From assembly GCA_944391425.1 (NCBI GenBank), contig CALXTO010000001.1:11066-75065 (forward strand): DNA of 64,000 nt, read 5' to 3'. Origin of the DNA: an uncultured Alphaproteobacteria bacterium (GTDB lineage: Bacteria; Pseudomonadota; Alphaproteobacteria; RF32; CAG-239). Under the pieces are notes generated by a model. That model had not been told where the DNA came from. It did no database searches and saw only the letters and a program-made list of their open reading frames with translations. How positions within the stretch are numbered: position 1 is the stretch's first letter; each line of letters begins with the position of its first letter. The position numbers were made by a program, and so were the translations under genes. This document shows positions 3,228-58,994 of this stretch, one piece after another.

Positions 3228-3335
3228 GTTTTCCTCCCGGTTGCCGTTTTAGAAATGATAAGTAATATCTTATTTCCATCTTGCATTTTTTTAAAGAGGT
3301 GATATTTTTATTTTGTGTATCAAACGGAGGTGTTT

Positions 3336-3593
3336 ATGGAGAAGAGGGTAGCCATTGTAGGCATTATCGTTGAGAATAAAAATTCAATCGAAACGTTGAA
3401 TTCCATTTTGCATGACTATGCCGACTATATTATCGGCAGAATGGGGCTCCCTTACCGGGCTCGTGGTATCAATATCATCAGTATTGCCATGGATGCACCG
3501 CAGGACGTCATAAACGCCCTTTCAGGAAAAATCGGAAATTTGGAGGGTATTTGCAGCAAGACCGTGTATTCAGACGTGATTTGCAGCGAATAA
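3336..3593 (+). CDS. TM1266-like putative [FeFe]-hydrogenase system regulator (ACT-like)
   Basis: MEKRVAIVGIIVEN...IIGRMGLPYR...NIISIAMDAP resembles the small TM1266 family that usually sits beside hydE/F/G (from memory). Start moved to the ATG at 3336, which is preceded by GGAGG. Confidence 0.6.
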   Translation: MEKRVAIVGIIVENKNSIETLNSILHDYADYIIGRMGLPYRARGINIISIAMDAPQDVINALSGKIGNLEGICSKTVYSDVICSE

Positions 3594-5072: not shown

Positions 5073-6251
5073 TCAGCTTAGGCTCAGGATAAAAGCGACC
5101 AGAATAAACAGCATTAGCGCTGTTCCGACGAGAATGACGGGAGCCGAGGAGTCCGTTTCACGGCGAAGTTTCCAATTGGCGGCAAAGATGCCGAGATAAC
5201 TAACCAGAAAAGCTGCACTGGAAAGATTGACAATGGATGAGAAGTCAAAAGCCAGCGTTGCCAGGATGATTAAGATTGTGGTAAACGCATTACCCAGAGT
5301 TCCATGCTCCCAAAATTTTCGGACATAAAAGTGTGGCAGTATTTTTTGCTGGCCTAAAGAATGTGAGATGCGGAAGACGCTGAAGAAAGTGGCGTTTATT
5401 CCGGTAATAAAGGCAAAAACGGCAGCGGCGTAAATCAGCCCGTATCCCCAGGTGCCGAGAATTTTTTCCGCTGCCGTGGCAACAGCCGTATCGGCATTGT
5501 CCAGCAAGCTGGCTGACGGCGTATAGTTGAGGACGACATAAGCCAAGAAAATGTATAATGCGGTGACAATGGCCAAGGTGGCAAAAATCGCCATTGTAAT
5601 TGTGCGTCCGGGGTTTTTAACATTGGCGGCGGCGTTAGTGATGACGCCGTAACCGGCGTAGGCGAAAAAAGTTATGCCGACCGCTTGGAGAAATTTCCAT
5701 TGGGAGGTGGCTATTTCCGGTGCAAACAGGCGCAAGCCGGGTTGGAAAAAAGCACCGATGATTAAAGCAATCAAAATTAACACTTTAATGAAAACAAGCA
5801 GCGTTTCCGAACGTCCGACATCGGCAGCGCCGAGCATATTGAGCAGGGAAAGGGCAGCTATGAGTATGCAGGCAAACGAGTTGATCCATAATTCCGACGG
5901 AGGTATCTGATCAAAAAATTCGGTTGCGTAAATTCCGAAGGATTTAGCCATCATGGAAATGGATATGGCAGAGGTGAGCATGTATATCAGAGAGAGGGTT
6001 CCGGATATCCAGTGATTGGGGAATGCCAGATGAAAATAATTGGTGAGACCTCCGGCAACCGGGTATTTGGCCGCGAGTTTGGCATAAGAGTAGCCTGAAA
6101 ACATGGCGGCAGCTCCGGCCAGGACGAAAGCATAGTAAGTTTGGTGCCCGGCCAGCAGGATGACTTGTCCGAGAAGGGCGAAAATTCCGGCGCCGACAAT
6201 CGAACCGATACCAAGGGAAATAACATTAAGTAAAGACATATTGTTTTGCAT
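5073..6251 (-). CDS. APC-family amino acid permease
   Basis: 392 aa polytopic membrane protein. N-terminal GIGSIVGAGIF motif typical of the APC superfamily. Confidence 0.85.
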   Translation of the reverse strand: MQNNMSLLNVISLGIGSIVGAGIFALLGQVILLAGHQTYYAFVLAGAAAMFSGYSYAKLAAKYPVAGGLTNYFHLAFPNHWISGTLSLIYMLTSAISISMMAKSFGIYATEFFDQIPPSELWINSFACILIAALSLLNMLGAADVGRSETLLVFIKVLILIALIIGAFFQPGLRLFAPEIATSQWKFLQAVGITFFAYAGYGVITNAAANVKNPGRTITMAIFATLAIVTALYIFLAYVVLNYTPSASLLDNADTAVATAAEKILGTWGYGLIYAAAVFAFITGINATFFSVFRISHSLGQQKILPHFYVRKFWEHGTLGNAFTTILIILATLAFDFSSIVNLSSAAFLVSYLGIFAANWKLRRETDSSAPVILVGTALMLFILVAFILSLS

Positions 6252-6380
6252 TTTTATTCTCCGCGCAAAAAATGTAATTGCGGAATTGAAAAAAACAACC
6301 TGTCCGGTTTTTTACCAATGATTAAACTTTAAGACCTATTATTTATTTTGAGCGGAGTTAAACATAGGAAAGGGAAAAAG

Positions 6381-7541
6381 ATGGCAAAACGTTTTATTCT
6401 TAACGAGACCAGCTACCACGGGCACGGGGCGGTTAATGAAATCGTTACCGAAGTGAGGTCCCGCGGATTTAAAAAAGCATTGATTGTGACGGATGCCGAC
6501 CTGGTAAAATTCAAGGTTGTTAAAAAAGTTACGGATTTGCTCGACAAGAACAAGCTTCCTTATGAGGTTTTTGACAAAGTGAAAGCCAATCCCAGCGTGG
6601 AAGTTGTTCAGGATGGCGTTAAGGCATTTAAAAAAGCCAAGGCCGATTATATGATTGCCGTTGGCGGGGGATCTCCTCAGGATACGGCCAAAGGAATCGG
6701 CATTATCATTAATAATCCCGAGTTTGCCGATGTCGTTTCTCTGGAAGGCGTTGCGCCGACCAAAAACAAGAGCGTTCCGGTAATTGCGGTGGCTACTACG
6801 GCCGGAACGGCAGCTGAGACGACTATTAATTATGTGATTACAGATGAGAAGAAACGCCGGAAATTTGTCTGTGTTGATCCGCATGATATTCCGGTGGTAG
6901 CGATTGTTGATCCAGATATGATGTCATCTATGCCCAAGGGGCTGACTGCGGCGACCGGCATGGACGCGCTGACGCATGCAATTGAAGGCTATACGACGCA
7001 GGGGGCATGGGAATTGGCTGATACTCTGAATCTGAAAGCGATTGAGCTGATTTCCAAAAATTTGCGCAAAGCGGTTGAAAATGATCCGGACGGGCGCGAA
7101 GGCATGGCTTTGGGGCAATATGTTACCGGCATGGCTTTTTCCAATGTCGGTTTGGGCGTGGTGCACGGCATGGCACACCCGCTTTCGGCTTTTTATGATA
7201 CGCCGCACGGTGTGGCAAACGCAGTCTTATTGCCGTATGTGATGGAATTTAACGCGCCTTATACAGGCACAAAGTTTCGCGAGATTGCCCGAGCTATGGG
7301 CGTTAAGAAAGTGGATGAAATGAAACAGGCCGAATATCGCGAAGCGGCTGTTAAGGCCGTTAAAAAACTGTCAAAAGATGTCGGTATTCCCAAAACTCTC
7401 AAAGATATCGGGGTTAAAAAAGAAGATTTGGAAGCATTGGCAGAGGCGGCGATGGCCGATGTCTGTACGGGGGGAAATCCACGTCCTTGTTGCAAGGAAT
7501 TGGTTTGGGAAGTTTATAAAAAAGCATATAACGGCAAATAG
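6381..7541 (+). CDS. fucO: iron-containing alcohol dehydrogenase, lactaldehyde reductase-like
   Basis: From MAKRFILNETSYHGHGA onward it is collinear and highly similar to E. coli FucO as I remember it (GGGSPQDT, TTAGTAAE, DPHDIP, HGVANA motifs). The ATG at 6381 is preferred over the upstream track start. Confidence 0.8.
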   Translation: MAKRFILNETSYHGHGAVNEIVTEVRSRGFKKALIVTDADLVKFKVVKKVTDLLDKNKLPYEVFDKVKANPSVEVVQDGVKAFKKAKADYMIAVGGGSPQDTAKGIGIIINNPEFADVVSLEGVAPTKNKSVPVIAVATTAGTAAETTINYVITDEKKRRKFVCVDPHDIPVVAIVDPDMMSSMPKGLTAATGMDALTHAIEGYTTQGAWELADTLNLKAIELISKNLRKAVENDPDGREGMALGQYVTGMAFSNVGLGVVHGMAHPLSAFYDTPHGVANAVLLPYVMEFNAPYTGTKFREIARAMGVKKVDEMKQAEYREAAVKAVKKLSKDVGIPKTLKDIGVKKEDLEALAEAAMADVCTGGNPRPCCKELVWEVYKKAYNGK

Positions 7542-7561
7542 GTTCCGAGCGGTTCCGTCCA

Positions 7562-7593
7562 ATCCCCCGTTTTGGTAGCGGGGGATTTTTTTG
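7562..7593 (+). terminator. Rho-independent terminator
   Basis: AATCCCCCG (7562-7570) / CGGGGGATT (7580-7588) stem followed by a T-run. Confidence 0.7.
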
Positions 7594-7651
7594 CTTTACA
7601 AAACAGGCTGCTTGAGCCATTATCGGGAAAGAATGAATAGGGAGATTGGGA

Positions 7652-8002
7652 ATGCAGTTTGAAATGATGTTTTCAAAAATCCATCGTGCAACCGTTACTG
7701 ATGCCAATTTAAATTATAAGGGCTCAATCACCATTGATGAAGAACTGATGAAACGGGCCGGCTTGAGCGAGTTTCAGAAAGTCGACGTGGTAGATATTGA
7801 TAATGGCGAAAGACTGTCCACATATGTGATTAAAGGGCCGGGTGGAAAAGGCGATATTTGTCTGAACGGCGCTGCCGCGCGAAAAGTTCAGATTGGCGAT
7901 AAAGTCATTATCATTGCTTATGCAACGGTTGACGCAAAGGAGAAAGAGAACTGGAATCCTTTGATTGTTCAGGTTGATGAACATAATCATCCCCGGGATT
8001 AG
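7652..8002 (+). CDS. panD: aspartate 1-decarboxylase
   Basis: [27 protein letters not shown] contains the conserved Gly-Ser self-processing site. The ATG at 7652 follows GGGAG. Confidence 0.9.
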
Positions 8003-8588: not shown

Positions 8589-9556
8589 AAAACATTTTGG
8601 TTATGGGCGGCGCCGGTTATATCGGTTCGCATACGGTAAGACATTTGCAGGAACATGGCTATGGTTGTATCGTCGCGGACAATTTGATTTACGGACACAG
8701 AGAGGCTGTATCTGCATCGTCTTTCGAGTTGGCGGATTTGGCCGATAAGGCTTCTCTCAAGGCAGTCTTTGACAAATATCGGATTGATGCCGTGGTTCAT
8801 TTTGCAGCGTTTACCTATGTCGGGGAAAGTGTGGAAAATCCGCGGAAATATTACGAAAATAATGTTGTCGGAACGTTGAACCTGTTGGATGTCATGCTGG
8901 ATCATGATGTTAAAAAAATTGTTTTTTCCAGCACTTGCGCTACTTATGGTAATCCGCAATATATGCCGTTGGATGAAAAACATCCGCAGGCGCCGATTAA
9001 TCCGTACGGACGGAGTAAGTTTGTTATTGAAAAAATTTTTGAAGATTATGGCCGTGCCTATGGTTTAAAATATACTGCTTTGCGTTATTTTAATGCGGCC
9101 GGAGCATCCAAAGACGGACAAATCGGTGAGAGCCATAATCCGGAAACCCATCTTATTCCGCTGGTTTTGAAGGCGATTAAAGGCGAACGGGACTGCATCA
9201 AAGTGTTCGGAACTGATTATGATACACCGGATGGAACCTGTTTGCGCGATTATGTACATGTAGAGGATTTGGCGGCGGCGCACCGGCTGGCTTTGGAAAA
9301 ACTTGACGAATTTCAGGGCTTTTTGAATTTGGGGACGGGGATACCGACTTCTGTTTTGGAGATAATCAGGGCTGCGGAAAAAGTAAGCGGACGGAAATGT
9401 CCGGTTGTTTATGAAAAACGCCGCGCCGGAGATCCTGCCGTTTTGTATGCTGCTAACGAAGAAGCCCGTAGGGTTTTGGGGTGGAAACCCGGGTATACAG
9501 ATATTGAAGAGATTATTCGCACGGCATGGAACTGGGAAATGAACCGTAAGTTTTAG
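8585..9556 (+). CDS. galE: UDP-glucose 4-epimerase
   Basis: 323 aa. GGAGYIGSH Rossmann motif, YGRSK (YxxxK) catalytic motif, overall GalE length. ATGA overlap with the upstream gene. Confidence 0.9.
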   Translation: MKNILVMGGAGYIGSHTVRHLQEHGYGCIVADNLIYGHREAVSASSFELADLADKASLKAVFDKYRIDAVVHFAAFTYVGESVENPRKYYENNVVGTLNLLDVMLDHDVKKIVFSSTCATYGNPQYMPLDEKHPQAPINPYGRSKFVIEKIFEDYGRAYGLKYTALRYFNAAGASKDGQIGESHNPETHLIPLVLKAIKGERDCIKVFGTDYDTPDGTCLRDYVHVEDLAAAHRLALEKLDEFQGFLNLGTGIPTSVLEIIRAAEKVSGRKCPVVYEKRRAGDPAVLYAANEEARRVLGWKPGYTDIEEIIRTAWNWEMNRKF

Positions 9557-9845: not shown

Positions 9846-11095
9846 TTCCTGAACATTTCCGAAAGCTCTTTGATTTTGGCGGTAATTTCCTCTTCGCCGA
9901 GAATATGATGGTTTTGCATAAGGATTTTGCCGTTGCAGATAACTGTATCAATGCAGGAGCTGTCGGCAGAATAAACCATGTTGGAAATTAAATTGTAGTT
10001 TGGCACCAGAAAATGGTTGTTTAAGTCAACCAAAATGCAATCAGCCAATTTGCCTTCGGCAATAATGCCGGCGTTGAGACCAAAAGCTTCCGCTCCGTTT
10101 CGGGTTGCGATTTTGAAGACTTCTTCAGCGGCTCCCGCCGTTGGATTCATGCTTTGTATTTTGGCAGAAAGAGCGCAAAGCTTCATCTCCTCCAGCATAC
10201 TCAGATTGTTGTTGGAGGCCATGCTGTCTGTGCCGAGTGTAATGATGCAGCCTTTTTCCAAGAGCTTTTGAAATTGAAAAACACCGGAAGCCAGTTTGTA
10301 GTTGGAAACGGGGTTGGTGCAGAGGCGGACTTTTTTGCGGGACAGAAGTTCAATGTCCCGGTCGTTGAGAAAAATCGCATGGGCAAGGATTGTCTTTTCA
10401 TTCAGAGCACCCAAACGGTCAAGATATTCAATCGGCGTGCAACCGTTTTGGCTCAGACAGTCGTCCACTTCTTTCTGTGTTTCGCAGGCATGAATATGCA
10501 GATACATATTGTTTTTGCGGGCGGTTTCCGTCGTGTAGCGTATAAGTTCCGGGGAAGCGCTGTAAACGGCGTGGATGGTTAAGACTTTGGCGGTAATTTC
10601 GGGGCAGGGATGAGGACAGTTCAGGTAGGCGTCGGTTTTACGTTTTTCCTGCTCGCAGCGCGCACAGTCAAACAAATCAAGGGCGCTGTGCGATGCAGCG
10701 ACCCGAATTCCCATTTCTGCCGCTGCTTTGAGAATAACCTGCGGTTCAAAATACATATCGGCAAAAAAGACAGTACCGGTTTTTATCATTTCCAAAATTG
10801 AAAATTTGGTGGCATGGTAAATAATATCCGACGTGAGGCGCGCTTCCCGGGGCCAAATATCGTCATGGAGCCAGGAAAACAGCTCTTTGTCGTCGCTAAT
10901 GCCGCGAAAAACGCTCATTCCGGCATGAGAATGTGTGTTGTAAAAACCGGGAAGAATGGCTTTGCCGCTGCCGTCAATGACATTGTCCGTCCGGGTGTTC
11001 AGATTGGGGGCAATTCGGGAAAAGGTATTGTTTTCAATCAGAACATCTGTTTGCTTTTGGTTGTGGACAACATTTCGGATTAAAAGGGAAGTCAT
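9842..11095 (-). CDS. mtaD: amidohydrolase, 5-methylthioadenosine/S-adenosylhomocysteine deaminase-like
   Basis: 417 aa. LPGFYNTHSHAGMS metal-binding HxH motif and overall chlorohydrolase/MtaD-like layout. Confidence 0.7.
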   Translation of the reverse strand: MTSLLIRNVVHNQKQTDVLIENNTFSRIAPNLNTRTDNVIDGSGKAILPGFYNTHSHAGMSVFRGISDDKELFSWLHDDIWPREARLTSDIIYHATKFSILEMIKTGTVFFADMYFEPQVILKAAAEMGIRVAASHSALDLFDCARCEQEKRKTDAYLNCPHPCPEITAKVLTIHAVYSASPELIRYTTETARKNNMYLHIHACETQKEVDDCLSQNGCTPIEYLDRLGALNEKTILAHAIFLNDRDIELLSRKKVRLCTNPVSNYKLASGVFQFQKLLEKGCIITLGTDSMASNNNLSMLEEMKLCALSAKIQSMNPTAGAAEEVFKIATRNGAEAFGLNAGIIAEGKLADCILVDLNNHFLVPNYNLISNMVYSADSSCIDTVICNGKILMQNHHILGEEEITAKIKELSEMFRN

Positions 11096-57207: not shown

Positions 57208-57272
57208 GTGCGAATCCGCACGGGCCAAGCAAGCGTCTGGAGGCGATACTGGCAGCACTCAAAATCGTGCTG

Positions 57273-58910
57273 CTAGAATAATCTTAGAATCGATTGGGCG
57301 GCTTGGGAGGCTAAAGATAAGGAATTGGTTGCCAGCTGCTGTCTGGTTTGTAAAGCCAGCATATTGGCGCTTTCTTCATTCATGTCTGCCAGGGTCAGCT
57401 TATCCGCGCCTTCTTCCAGCACGTTGATTAAATTCTCGGTAAAGTCCTGACGATTAAGCACAATGTTATAATAACCGCCCAACTCTGATGACATACTGCG
57501 GATTTGGTTCAAGGCCGAGGATATTTCCTTTAGGGATTGGGCGATGTCTTCAATAGTATTCCACTCCGTCGTTGTCAGTCCGAGAGCGGCGGATGAAGCA
57601 TCTTTACCCCTGACATCCAGCCAGGCACTGCGGTTCTCGTTAAAGGTGACTTTCAAATCCTGTTCCTGCAGCAAATTGACGCCTTTATAAGAACTGTCTT
57701 TGATTAAGGAATCATACTGAAACAAAATATTTTGATACTGTTGTTCTTCTGCCGAGGACAAAGAACTTTCTGCTATGGCTTCCTGAATGGCGGTCAGAAA
57801 TTGGCTGCTGTCATAGTTGTCTATACCGGTGACGTCTTCGCGAGATTTAGTGCTGGTGGTGTGGTATGTATATGTTTGTGTTCCGGTATAAGGATCATCG
57901 GGATTGAAATTGCTGGTTGAATCTGTGGAGTTGAAAGTCAAATCTTTAAGATTAACGATCTTAGCGGATTTGCCGTCTTCCGAAACCCAGGTGACAATAC
58001 CGACTGCAGTTTTGCTGTCATCGTAATCATCGGCCGAACCATAGGTTAAATCCGAGTACATCACGTCACCGATTTGCGGCGCTGAAGCTGCATCTGTCGG
58101 ATTGAAATAATTTTCTAAAAATTGGAAACATCGGACGTAGTGGTAGAGGAGGCTCCTAATATTGCCGTTTCGGTCCCCATTATCCATATGGAATAGCCAT
58201 GAACTGGAATTGTGATACTCAGAAGAAGACCAATAATATTCATTCGCTAAAGTTGTGCAATCTACGCCTAAATTTTTTAAGGTTGCAAGGGCGTCATTAA
58301 TGACGTTTTTATTTTCACCACTTGCTCCTGTTGTCCCGCGTCCATCGGTGATATTACCGGCTGTTGTACCATACATTTCCATTAACTCACCAACAGCGGG
58401 CAGATACCATTGTCCCTGACCGAAATTGGCATCATCTTTATCCACGCCCGGCGCATAAAACTGATTAGCTGCCGTCGCTGCCAAGGCGTCGGCACCAATC
58501 TGATCCAGCATCGCCTGTGTGTTAGCGCGGCCGTCAAAAAGGCTGGTGTCGCGGATGGCCGCGCCATCACTGATGCCGCTCGGCTGCCGAATATAAATTC
58601 TTTCCGCGCTTTCCAGCGCCTGGGTGGCAACAGCCGAAGCCTGTTCCAGAAAATCCGCTGCCGTTTCCAGAGATGTGGTCGCCGACTTAATGGTAGAAAC
58701 AGCCTGCCCCATAGAGTCAAGCAAGGCATCCAAGTCGCTGGCGCGATTGCTTAAGCTGCGCGCCGTGTAATAAGAGGAAGGATTATCAATTGCCGAATTG
58801 ACTTTTTTACCGGTGGACAATCTGTTCTGGGTAGAATCAACCTGCCTGCTGATATTCTGCAGGCTCAGCAGATTGCTCCTCATGCTTGCGGTCAGGCTTA
58901 CTTTATCCAT
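57273..58910 (-). CDS. flagellin with a large central insert
   Basis: 545 aa. N-terminal D0/D1 (LLSLQNISRQVDSTQNRLSTGKKVNSAIDNP) and C-terminal D1/D0 (LALQTRQQLATNSLSLASQAAQSILRLF) flagellin helices. About 270 aa lie between them. Confidence 0.9.
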   Translation of the reverse strand: MDKVSLTASMRSNLLSLQNISRQVDSTQNRLSTGKKVNSAIDNPSSYYTARSLSNRASDLDALLDSMGQAVSTIKSATTSLETAADFLEQASAVATQALESAERIYIRQPSGISDGAAIRDTSLFDGRANTQAMLDQIGADALAATAANQFYAPGVDKDDANFGQGQWYLPAVGELMEMYGTTAGNITDGRGTTGASGENKNVINDALATLKNLGVDCTTLANEYYWSSSEYHNSSSWLFHMDNGDRNGNIRSLLYHYVRCFQFLENYFNPTDAASAPQIGDVMYSDLTYGSADDYDDSKTAVGIVTWVSEDGKSAKIVNLKDLTFNSTDSTSNFNPDDPYTGTQTYTYHTTSTKSREDVTGIDNYDSSQFLTAIQEAIAESSLSSAEEQQYQNILFQYDSLIKDSSYKGVNLLQEQDLKVTFNENRSAWLDVRGKDASSAALGLTTTEWNTIEDIAQSLKEISSALNQIRSMSSELGGYYNIVLNRQDFTENLINVLEEGADKLTLADMNEESANMLALQTRQQLATNSLSLASQAAQSILRLF

Positions 58911-58994
58911 GGTTGTCCTCTTTGATTACCTATATCGACAATATATTAATCATCGCCGAACAAGCAACAAACAAGAAAAACTTTTCCACAGAAA

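Follow-up and report, generated by a model that had tools for sequence, protein, structure and literature searches.

The stretch of DNA analysed here (64,000 nt; positions 11,066–75,065 of the forward strand of contig CALXTO010000001.1, assembly GCA_944391425.1; hereafter the window) comes from an uncultured Alphaproteobacteria bacterium (GTDB RF32; CAG-239) and carries, on its reverse strand at 57273..58910, an open reading frame of 545 codons plus stop that encodes a flagellin. Both flagellin signatures score above the Pfam cut-offs, Flagellin_N (PF00669) at residues 12–101 with 39.2 bits (cut-off 26.6) and Flagellin_C (PF00700) at residues 460–545 with 36.9 bits (cut-off 23). Several flagellin subfamily models of NCBIfam match below their cut-offs, the top one being PRK12688, of the large alphaproteobacterial type, and a protein identical to the window flagellin (P0001) is present in public data. 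The gene product is predicted to be a flagellin with the standard D0/D1 polymerisation helices, as a preliminary description of the locus had held. Judged from sequence, the gene belongs to a family of flagellins with a lectin-like outer domain that can be diversified by a diversity-generating retroelement (DGR), and it keeps the footprint of such an element with none nearby in the 64 kb.

The N-terminal D0/D1 helices span residues 1–101 (58608..58910; like all the domains that follow, on the reverse strand) and are defined by Flagellin_N, by the helices of an AlphaFold2 model (residues 8–32 and 44–101) and by Foldseek. A short linker (residues 102–126; 58533..58607), delimited from segment lengths over 86 homologues, leads to an Lcl_C/DUF1566-like domain (residues 127–266; 58113..58532), assigned from a sub-threshold Lcl_C match, the matches of its family and a predicted local distance difference test score (pLDDT) of 92–98 per ten-residue block. 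Within it lies a stretch, YWSSSE...VRCFQF (residues 226–265; 58117..58235), that is homologous to a DGR variable region (VR) and was delimited by blastn with an inferred template, the cognate template not being in the window. A beta-rich second outer subdomain follows (residues 267–366; 57813..58112; predicted strands 283–285, 302–309 and 316–319, pLDDT ∼89–97), and the C-terminal D1/D0 region (residues 367–545; 57276..57812) is marked by Flagellin_C and by predicted helices at 368–405 and 453–544. The surface-exposed part is therefore a two-part module, in which an Lcl_C/DUF1566-type domain is followed by a small beta-rich subdomain. The motifs on which the preliminary description had drawn were located where it placed them, GQGQWYLPAVGELMEMYG at residues 164–181 and EYYWSSSE...YHYVRCF at residues 224–262, together covering nt ∼58125–58421.

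Structure prediction, which that description had proposed as a check on the insert, gave a well-folded rather than a disordered region. The full-length AlphaFold2 model, built on an 86-sequence alignment, has a mean pLDDT of 85.9, with ten-residue blocks at 89–98 over residues 111–380, and a model of the insert alone has a mean of 88.8; in these models the insert (residues ∼102–366) is a confidently folded outer region. In a Foldseek search the whole model matched flagellar filament structures (6xky, Caulobacter FljK; 7sn9; 9n8a; E 2e-5 to 1e-3), all through the flagellin core, with no match to the outer domain.

The identity of the outer domain is clearest at the level of the family. The full-length window protein matches PF07603 (Lcl_C) with E=2e-4 and 22.1 bits (residues 160–261, profile positions 38–115 of 117) and the insert alone with E=4.6e-5 and 24.1 bits, both under the gathering score of 34.9 bits, so that class membership is shown via the homologues. 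The proposal that a DUF1566-like domain replaces the usual outer region therefore stands for the family, where 25 of 27 cropped members match Lcl_C (best E=2.2e-9), and falls below threshold for the window protein taken by itself. Many homologues have precomputed PF07603 matches, and those found by the insert profile with E between 1e-278 and 1e-96 score 50–75 bits on Lcl_C. The same profile retrieved 2,204 representative proteins at E<=1e-3, 113 of them at E<=1e-30, including proteins of 350–390 residues with the lectin-like part at the extreme C-terminus. The six top-scoring multi-copy proteins that were scanned are non-flagellins with 2–7 copies of the module, five of which match Lcl_C at 50–75 bits. 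A search of PDB sequences gave chance-level matches only with the insert alone, and with the insert profile it gave 8q4e_A (‘HbP1’) at E=3e-4 on the YWSS...VR block, over ∼40 aligned residues. Taken together, Lcl_C/DUF1566 homology is secure at the family level. DUF1566 adopts a C-type-lectin fold (PMC6642488), and the assignment of this fold to the insert rests on sequence family membership together with that literature.

The segment that follows the motifs had been read as a sign that the DUF1566 domain of the insert is circularly permuted, the sole ground being a resemblance between TAVGIVTWVSEDGKSAKIV and N-terminal strands found in some DUF1566 proteins. Moving residues 276–330 before residues 124–266 raised the Lcl_C score only to 24.6 from 24.1 bits, with the profile still matched at 38–115; residues 276–372 alone have no Pfam match; and the native N-terminal helices of other members align to profile positions 20–37. 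Permutation is thus very improbable and was dropped in favour of a distinct beta-rich subdomain that accompanies the lectin-like part, the two co-occurring in flagellins and in multi-copy non-flagellin proteins. Six such proteins (P0121, P0122, P0126, P0136, P0144 and P0193), non-flagellins of 1,100–1,700 residues, carry 3–13 copies of the combined module; they could be repeat adhesins, and the flagellin insert may have come from them or passed into them.

Relatives of the window flagellin come solely from metagenome-assembled genomes (MAGs) of uncultured human-gut Alphaproteobacteria (Hadza, Nepal, Brazil and other cohorts), some of them labelled Azospirillaceae. A survey of related flagellins, also suggested in the preliminary description, found the lectin-like module in ∼40 of the 77 loci returned. 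The module (residues 127–366) is conserved over 86 homologues, while the segment between residues 101 and 127 is 10–37 residues long in the short forms, with 26 in the window protein, and 137–240 in long ones, whose extra domain is annotated Pectate_lyase_5 (PF20585) in some members. A single MAG, CAKQMD01, supplies 29 of the 77 loci (within L006–L074), several as contig-end fragments; the lectin-like module is present in eight of these, and outer domains of other kinds are found in the remainder. Its flagellin gene family is unusually large, even if several entries are fragmentary.

The most informative feature of the locus, absent from the preliminary description, is the correspondence of the YWSS...VRCF block, by homology, to a DGR variable region. 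In the cropped family alignment invariant scaffold residues (YWSSSE-x5-SW-x3-M-x2-G-x-R-x5-K-x4-VRCF) are interleaved with hypervariable ones. Because PF07603/DUF1566 is a frequent DGR target domain, and indeed the commonest (PMC6642488), each VR was compared by blastn with every locus retrieved in a search for template repeats. Copies of the VR outside the gene, ∼115 nt long and rich in AAC/AAT, were found at L026:6084–6198, L023:6088–6201, L034:5704–5816 and L044:1475–1362. Template and VR of the adjacent flagellin differ almost exclusively at template adenines, with 14 adenine and no other mismatches in L023, 18 and none in L026 (repeat core), 18 and one in L034, and 18 and two in L044. A uniform scan identified adenine-specific template/VR pairs in L023, L026, L033, L034, L044, L092–96, L106 and L108.

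The protein components of a DGR accompany these repeats: in eight related flagellin loci of gut Alphaproteobacteria, an AAY-rich template repeat of ∼115 nt, a reverse transcriptase and bAvd adjoin the flagellin gene. L026 is ordered as template, a 437-residue reverse transcriptase (RT; RVT_1 E=1.2e-16, with IGNLTSQ and YVDD motifs), a 120-residue bAvd (PF22296 at 59.7 bits, cut-off 40; NCBIfam DivGenRetAVD at E=1e-12, below its cut-off) and the flagellin. RT and Avd homologues flank flagellins in L014, L023, L033 and L034, the template of L033 sitting between Avd and flagellin in the opposite orientation, and in L044 an RT homologue does so with no Avd present. When the L026 RT was used as a protein query, ∼54 clusters at >=59% identity were returned; all three that were looked up (P0275, P0309 and P0270; 65–83% identity to the L026 RT) adjoin flagellins. 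The nearest RT outside the flagellin-linked group is P0325, at 58% identity; it is part of a classical DGR at L103 591–4299 in which a 267-residue Lcl_C non-flagellin target is followed by bAvd and then RT, which hints that the flagellin-linked DGRs derive from a cassette of this kind. None of the clusters P0275, P0325, P0309 and P0270 comes from the window's samples.

Variation between samples was followed at the P0275 locus (L092–96), which at least five samples yielded with a complete flagellin gene. These five have one and the same template, and 2.5 kb of template, RT and Avd (positions 5250–7750) contain no variable column, whereas the VR has 34 variable columns in ∼125 nt, against a background of ∼3% over 10 kb. 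It occurs as four alleles, each with 16–19 adenine and 1–2 other mismatches to the template, at least one of the latter lying at the 3′ edge of the repeat. This is the pattern that an active DGR would be expected to leave. The template-RT-Avd block is invariant although the flanks of the five loci differ by 1.5–2.5%, suggesting either strong constraint on the cassette or its recent spread. In MAG JAHALQ01 a second flagellin, L020, lies on a different contig from L034, and its VR differs from the L034 template at 16 adenine and two other positions; one DGR can therefore serve remote flagellin copies. In four loci a stop codon or frameshift falls exactly within the VR (L001, ∼8598–8816; L034, ∼9029–9150; L044, ∼3310–3541; L037, ∼9097–9231), these genes being either pseudogenes or consensus artefacts from the assembly of a heterogeneous VR population. 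From template, mismatch and gene content, the strands and loops at the C-terminal end of the lectin-like domain are recognisable as a DGR variable region in related gut flagellins.

Whether the same holds for the window copy has to be read from its VR. This aligns position-for-position with the proven VRs, and against foreign templates its mismatches are more frequent at adenine sites than at others (44–45% vs 18–32%). Of its 20 variable codons, 18 have the form NNY; of the two others, one is CTA, at a site that reads AAA in four of the five templates found, and the second is ATG, as in the L034 template. A broader post-hoc count gives 20 NNY codons of 21, with P=1.4e-4 against the non-VR rate of 57%. 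Over 35 family members, K, E, Q, W and M make up 6% of VR variable columns vs 19% of other variable outer-domain columns, and third-position pyrimidines amount to 83% vs 59%, or to 73% vs 59% at four-fold sites. L079 is a paralogue from a sample that also contains, at equal coverage, a 100%-identical copy of the window locus. Between it and the window gene, third positions are identical at 25 of 28 sites in the VR, compared with 0.63 in the rest of the gene, while identity at first and second positions falls to 0.59 in the VR from 0.91 elsewhere. L026 and L015, whose templates are near-identical, show the same behaviour, with third-position identity of 0.96 in the VR and 0.43 elsewhere. A template inferred from the window gene and L079 is 88% identical to the real template of L023, a comparison that is partly circular. 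The share of mismatches involving adenine between the window gene and its paralogues is higher in the VR, though not significantly so (Fisher p 0.12–0.31). We read these observations as indicating that the window VR was probably written by a DGR after the paralogues diverged. Its cognate template is predicted to be ∼115 nt long, of the form TTGGTCTTCTTCTGAG...TACGTCCGATGTTTCCAATTTTT, with adenines at the sites that vary in the VR. A hairpin formed by the conserved LLEN codons just 3′ of the VR was considered as a target-recognition element and set aside, being inseparable from protein constraint.

Several results weigh against this reading for the window copy. Blastn of the gene against the 64-kb window at word sizes 7 and 11 found no template repeat, tblastn with the L026 RT and Avd as queries found neither in the window at E<=10, and 4–10 kb of sequence on each side of L079, L080 and L081, the nearest paralogues (82–86% identity, at unrelated loci), contain no DGR. 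Compared with the foreign templates of L023, L026, L034 and L044, the window VR has mismatches at 18–20 of 40–44 adenine sites (44–45%) and also at 13–24 of 71–74 non-adenine sites (18–32%), so that an adenine-only origin is provable only with the cognate template. L080 has no common third-position signal with the window gene. The lectin fold, too, lacks a significant structural match: Foldseek with the insert-only model returned nothing significant in the PDB (best E ∼1), and in BFVD its best match was an unnamed protein (E=3e-3), with a phage DUF1566 protein at E=0.38. Nor does the VR vary among orthologous loci, which were retrieved through exact matches to the adjacent MlaD protein; it is identical in four other samples (L082, L083, L087 and L090). 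These loci are 99.96–100% identical to the window and hence represent the same strain, so that the comparison has little power; contigs of more divergent strains end at the edge of the flagellin gene, and exact look-up of P0004 and of a 158-residue start variant of MlaD gave no match. Finally, the gene is missing from one close strain, L086 (described below), and is therefore dispensable.

Some of these points would be expected of an ordinary hypervariable outer domain, shaped by diversifying selection from antibodies and phages and by recombination among paralogues, with no current or recent retroelement acting on the window copy. The missing template and RT in the window and beside the nearest paralogues, the invariant VR among same-strain samples and the lack of a shared-template signal in L080 are all compatible with such a history, as is a cluster of synonymous differences in L084, which suggests paralogue exchange or chimeric assembly. 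Selection alone, however, predicts neither 18 NNY codons of 20 nor the depletion of K, E, Q, W and M, nor does it predict third positions conserved above the gene-wide level while first and second positions diverge, and the stretch is homologous, position for position, to proven VRs. We therefore regard this explanation as rather unlikely. The synonymous cluster itself was seen in L084/L078 (ERZ28614520 scaffold_894), which encodes an identical protein but has 19 nucleotide differences from the window, all synonymous, at positions 58660–58835; these lie in codons 26–84, near the contig end.

A DGR-written VR leaves two states for the window copy: it may be targeted from a distance, by a DGR located in another part of the genome, or it may have been a target only in the past. 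That it is still targeted is quite possible, with chances that are at best about even.

The neighbours of the window gene (an ABC transporter, two copies of MlaD, DUF2155, TrkH and MetRS) are housekeeping genes, so the window flagellin is an orphan gene. No second flagellin lies within the 64-kb window, where tblastn with the flagellin gave chance matches only, two of them inside ApbE and an amino-acid permease. Among the nearest paralogues, L080 adjoins carD and L079 adjoins flgF/G/A/H and flaF, which implies that a flagellar apparatus exists in the lineage. About 70 nt 5′ of the ATG, on the reverse strand at 58977..58990, lies a conserved box, TGTGGAAAAGTTTT, which occurs once in the window and was recognised by comparing the upstream sequences of paralogues; as (T)GTGGAAAAGTTTT it is present ∼65–110 nt upstream of paralogues at unrelated loci (L003, L008, L011, L015, L038, L079, L080, L081 and others). 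The box may be a promoter or regulatory element, and its occurrence at unrelated loci suggests common regulation of the paralogues. It contains AAAGTTT, which corresponds to the sigma-28 −35 element, and no −10 element was seen at the usual spacing from it. A scan for sigma-70 promoter and terminator consensus sequences was uninformative, with no sigma-70-like promoter prominent. At the other end of the gene an inverted repeat, GCAGCAC-N8-GTGCTGC (57252..57273), overlaps the stop codon and extends just beyond the 3′ end; it may be a terminator stem.

The whole unit is variable between strains. Megablast of orthologous loci and inspection of the junctions define a strain-variable segment at 57246..58976, which in L086 (GCA_949291265.1, CASEVC010000045.1) is replaced by 162 nt, the flanks being 99.4–99.7% identical to the window and the flagellin gene absent. 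One end of these 162 nt retains the upstream box together with a leader like that of L079, and the other a diverged version of the 3′ hairpin, an arrangement that would fit either a clean removal of the coding sequence or its never having been inserted.

An orphan gene amid housekeeping genes (MlaD, DUF2155, TrkH, MetRS), present or absent between strains and with very many paralogues per related genome (29 of the 77 loci returned belong to one MAG), might not encode a filament subunit at all. It could instead specify a flagellin-derived adhesin that is secreted through the flagellar type III system or sits close to the cap, or else be a rarely expressed silent cassette. This is unlikely in our view, as D0/D1 is intact and conserved over its full length, the upstream box is common to a paralogue that adjoins flg genes, and the predicted model superposes on filament flagellins.

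Our preferred explanation, which we consider probable, is that the window gene encodes a lectin-fold outer-domain flagellin whose VR has been written by a DGR in the family, the window copy included, and which presents a variable ligand-binding face on the filament. In established DGR biology an RT-Avd complex reverse-transcribes the template RNA, misincorporating opposite adenines, and the resulting cDNA takes the place of the VR. In these flagellins the VR is predicted to form the exposed face of the lectin-like outer domain. Each filament would then show thousands of copies of one VR variant, and the variable face may serve adhesion to glycans or proteins of host, mucus or particles, and/or escape from secretory antibodies and flagellotropic phages. 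The module thus probably gives the filament a variable, multivalent surface for binding or antigenic change, and the binding function displayed along the filament that the preliminary description had envisaged seems a reasonable reading. More tentatively, and possible rather than probable, one DGR may reprogram the lectin-fold faces of several flagellin paralogues, with the window copy as a live remote target; the filament would then act as a highly multivalent, antibody-like variable adhesin or decoy, its specificity shifting within the host.

The flagellins described here resemble the known lectin-fold targets of DGRs (Bordetella phage Mtd, Treponema TvpA and DUF1566/PF07603 proteins) in domain family and in a VR placed in C-terminal strands of the domain, and, at the relatives' loci, in the AAY-rich template, the adenine-specific mismatches and the presence of RT and bAvd. 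They differ from them in that the VR is internal, ∼280 residues before the C-terminus and followed by a subdomain and the D1/D0 helices; in that the carrier is a self-polymerising motility filament protein rather than a tail fibre, lipoprotein or pilus-associated protein; and in that the window copy has no nearby DGR. The part of the Roux et al. supplement consulted (PMC8144416) holds 338 PF07603 targets and, among its DGR targets, no PF00669 or PF00700. ‘Flagellin’ does appear as a single word among DGR target annotations (PMC6642488), and beyond that one-word annotation no description of a DGR acting on a flagellin was found in the open-access literature. The rewriting of a flagellin's binding loops by a DGR has thus apparently not been described before for a flagellum.

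Among flagellins, the closest analogues are those that display a folded domain on the filament. Flagellinolysins, the HEXXH protease flagellins, share the conserved D0/D1 and a folded non-canonical surface domain; the translated window flagellin has no HEXXH motif and no peptidase Pfam match. To our knowledge, no flagellin outer domain has been reported as rewritten by a retroelement. The pectate-lyase-like and immunoglobulin-like flagellins of Fields et al. 2024 are alike in displaying an outer domain, and the long members of the present family are Pectate_lyase_5-like; the outer-domain clusters of that survey comprise immunoglobulin-like, pectate-lyase-like (cluster #35), HEXXH and other types, with no mention of a lectin or DUF1566 outer domain (PMC11532411). 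Likeness to the C-terminal domain of Legionella Lcl, to DUF1566 proteins and to PDB 8q4e ‘HbP1’ lies in the W-x-LP...EL and YWSS...W...G...VR motifs. It is a likeness by sequence, in which the window protein remains below the Pfam cut-off and ∼40 residues alone align to the solved chain; Legionella Lcl itself is a collagen-like adhesin. As in Salmonella fliC/fljB switching and in multi-flagellin families, an exposed surface is varied while the core is kept, with many paralogues per genome, but in contrast to Salmonella phase variation the relatives use targeted rewriting of codons by reverse transcription, not promoter inversion or a choice between genes.

Flagellin is a main bacterial antigen for the gut immune system, through TLR5 and anti-flagellin antibodies, and also serves as a phage receptor, and DGRs are, as far as we know, the only natural targeted protein hypervariation outside adaptive immunity. 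An element of this kind acting on the exposed face of a flagellin would bring the two together. The large flagellin family of this type in uncultured human-gut Alphaproteobacteria combines known kinds, the lectin-fold targets of DGRs and the functional outer domains of flagellins. If our interpretation is correct, it would add to the DGR targets a new class in which the VR is internal to a self-assembling protein, and nature would offer in it a scaffold for polyvalent display. Some of the extreme diversity of flagellins in these uncultured gut bacteria would be accounted for as well, and the system would provide these organisms with a motility organelle that has a programmable binding or antigenic surface, presented in thousands of copies per filament.

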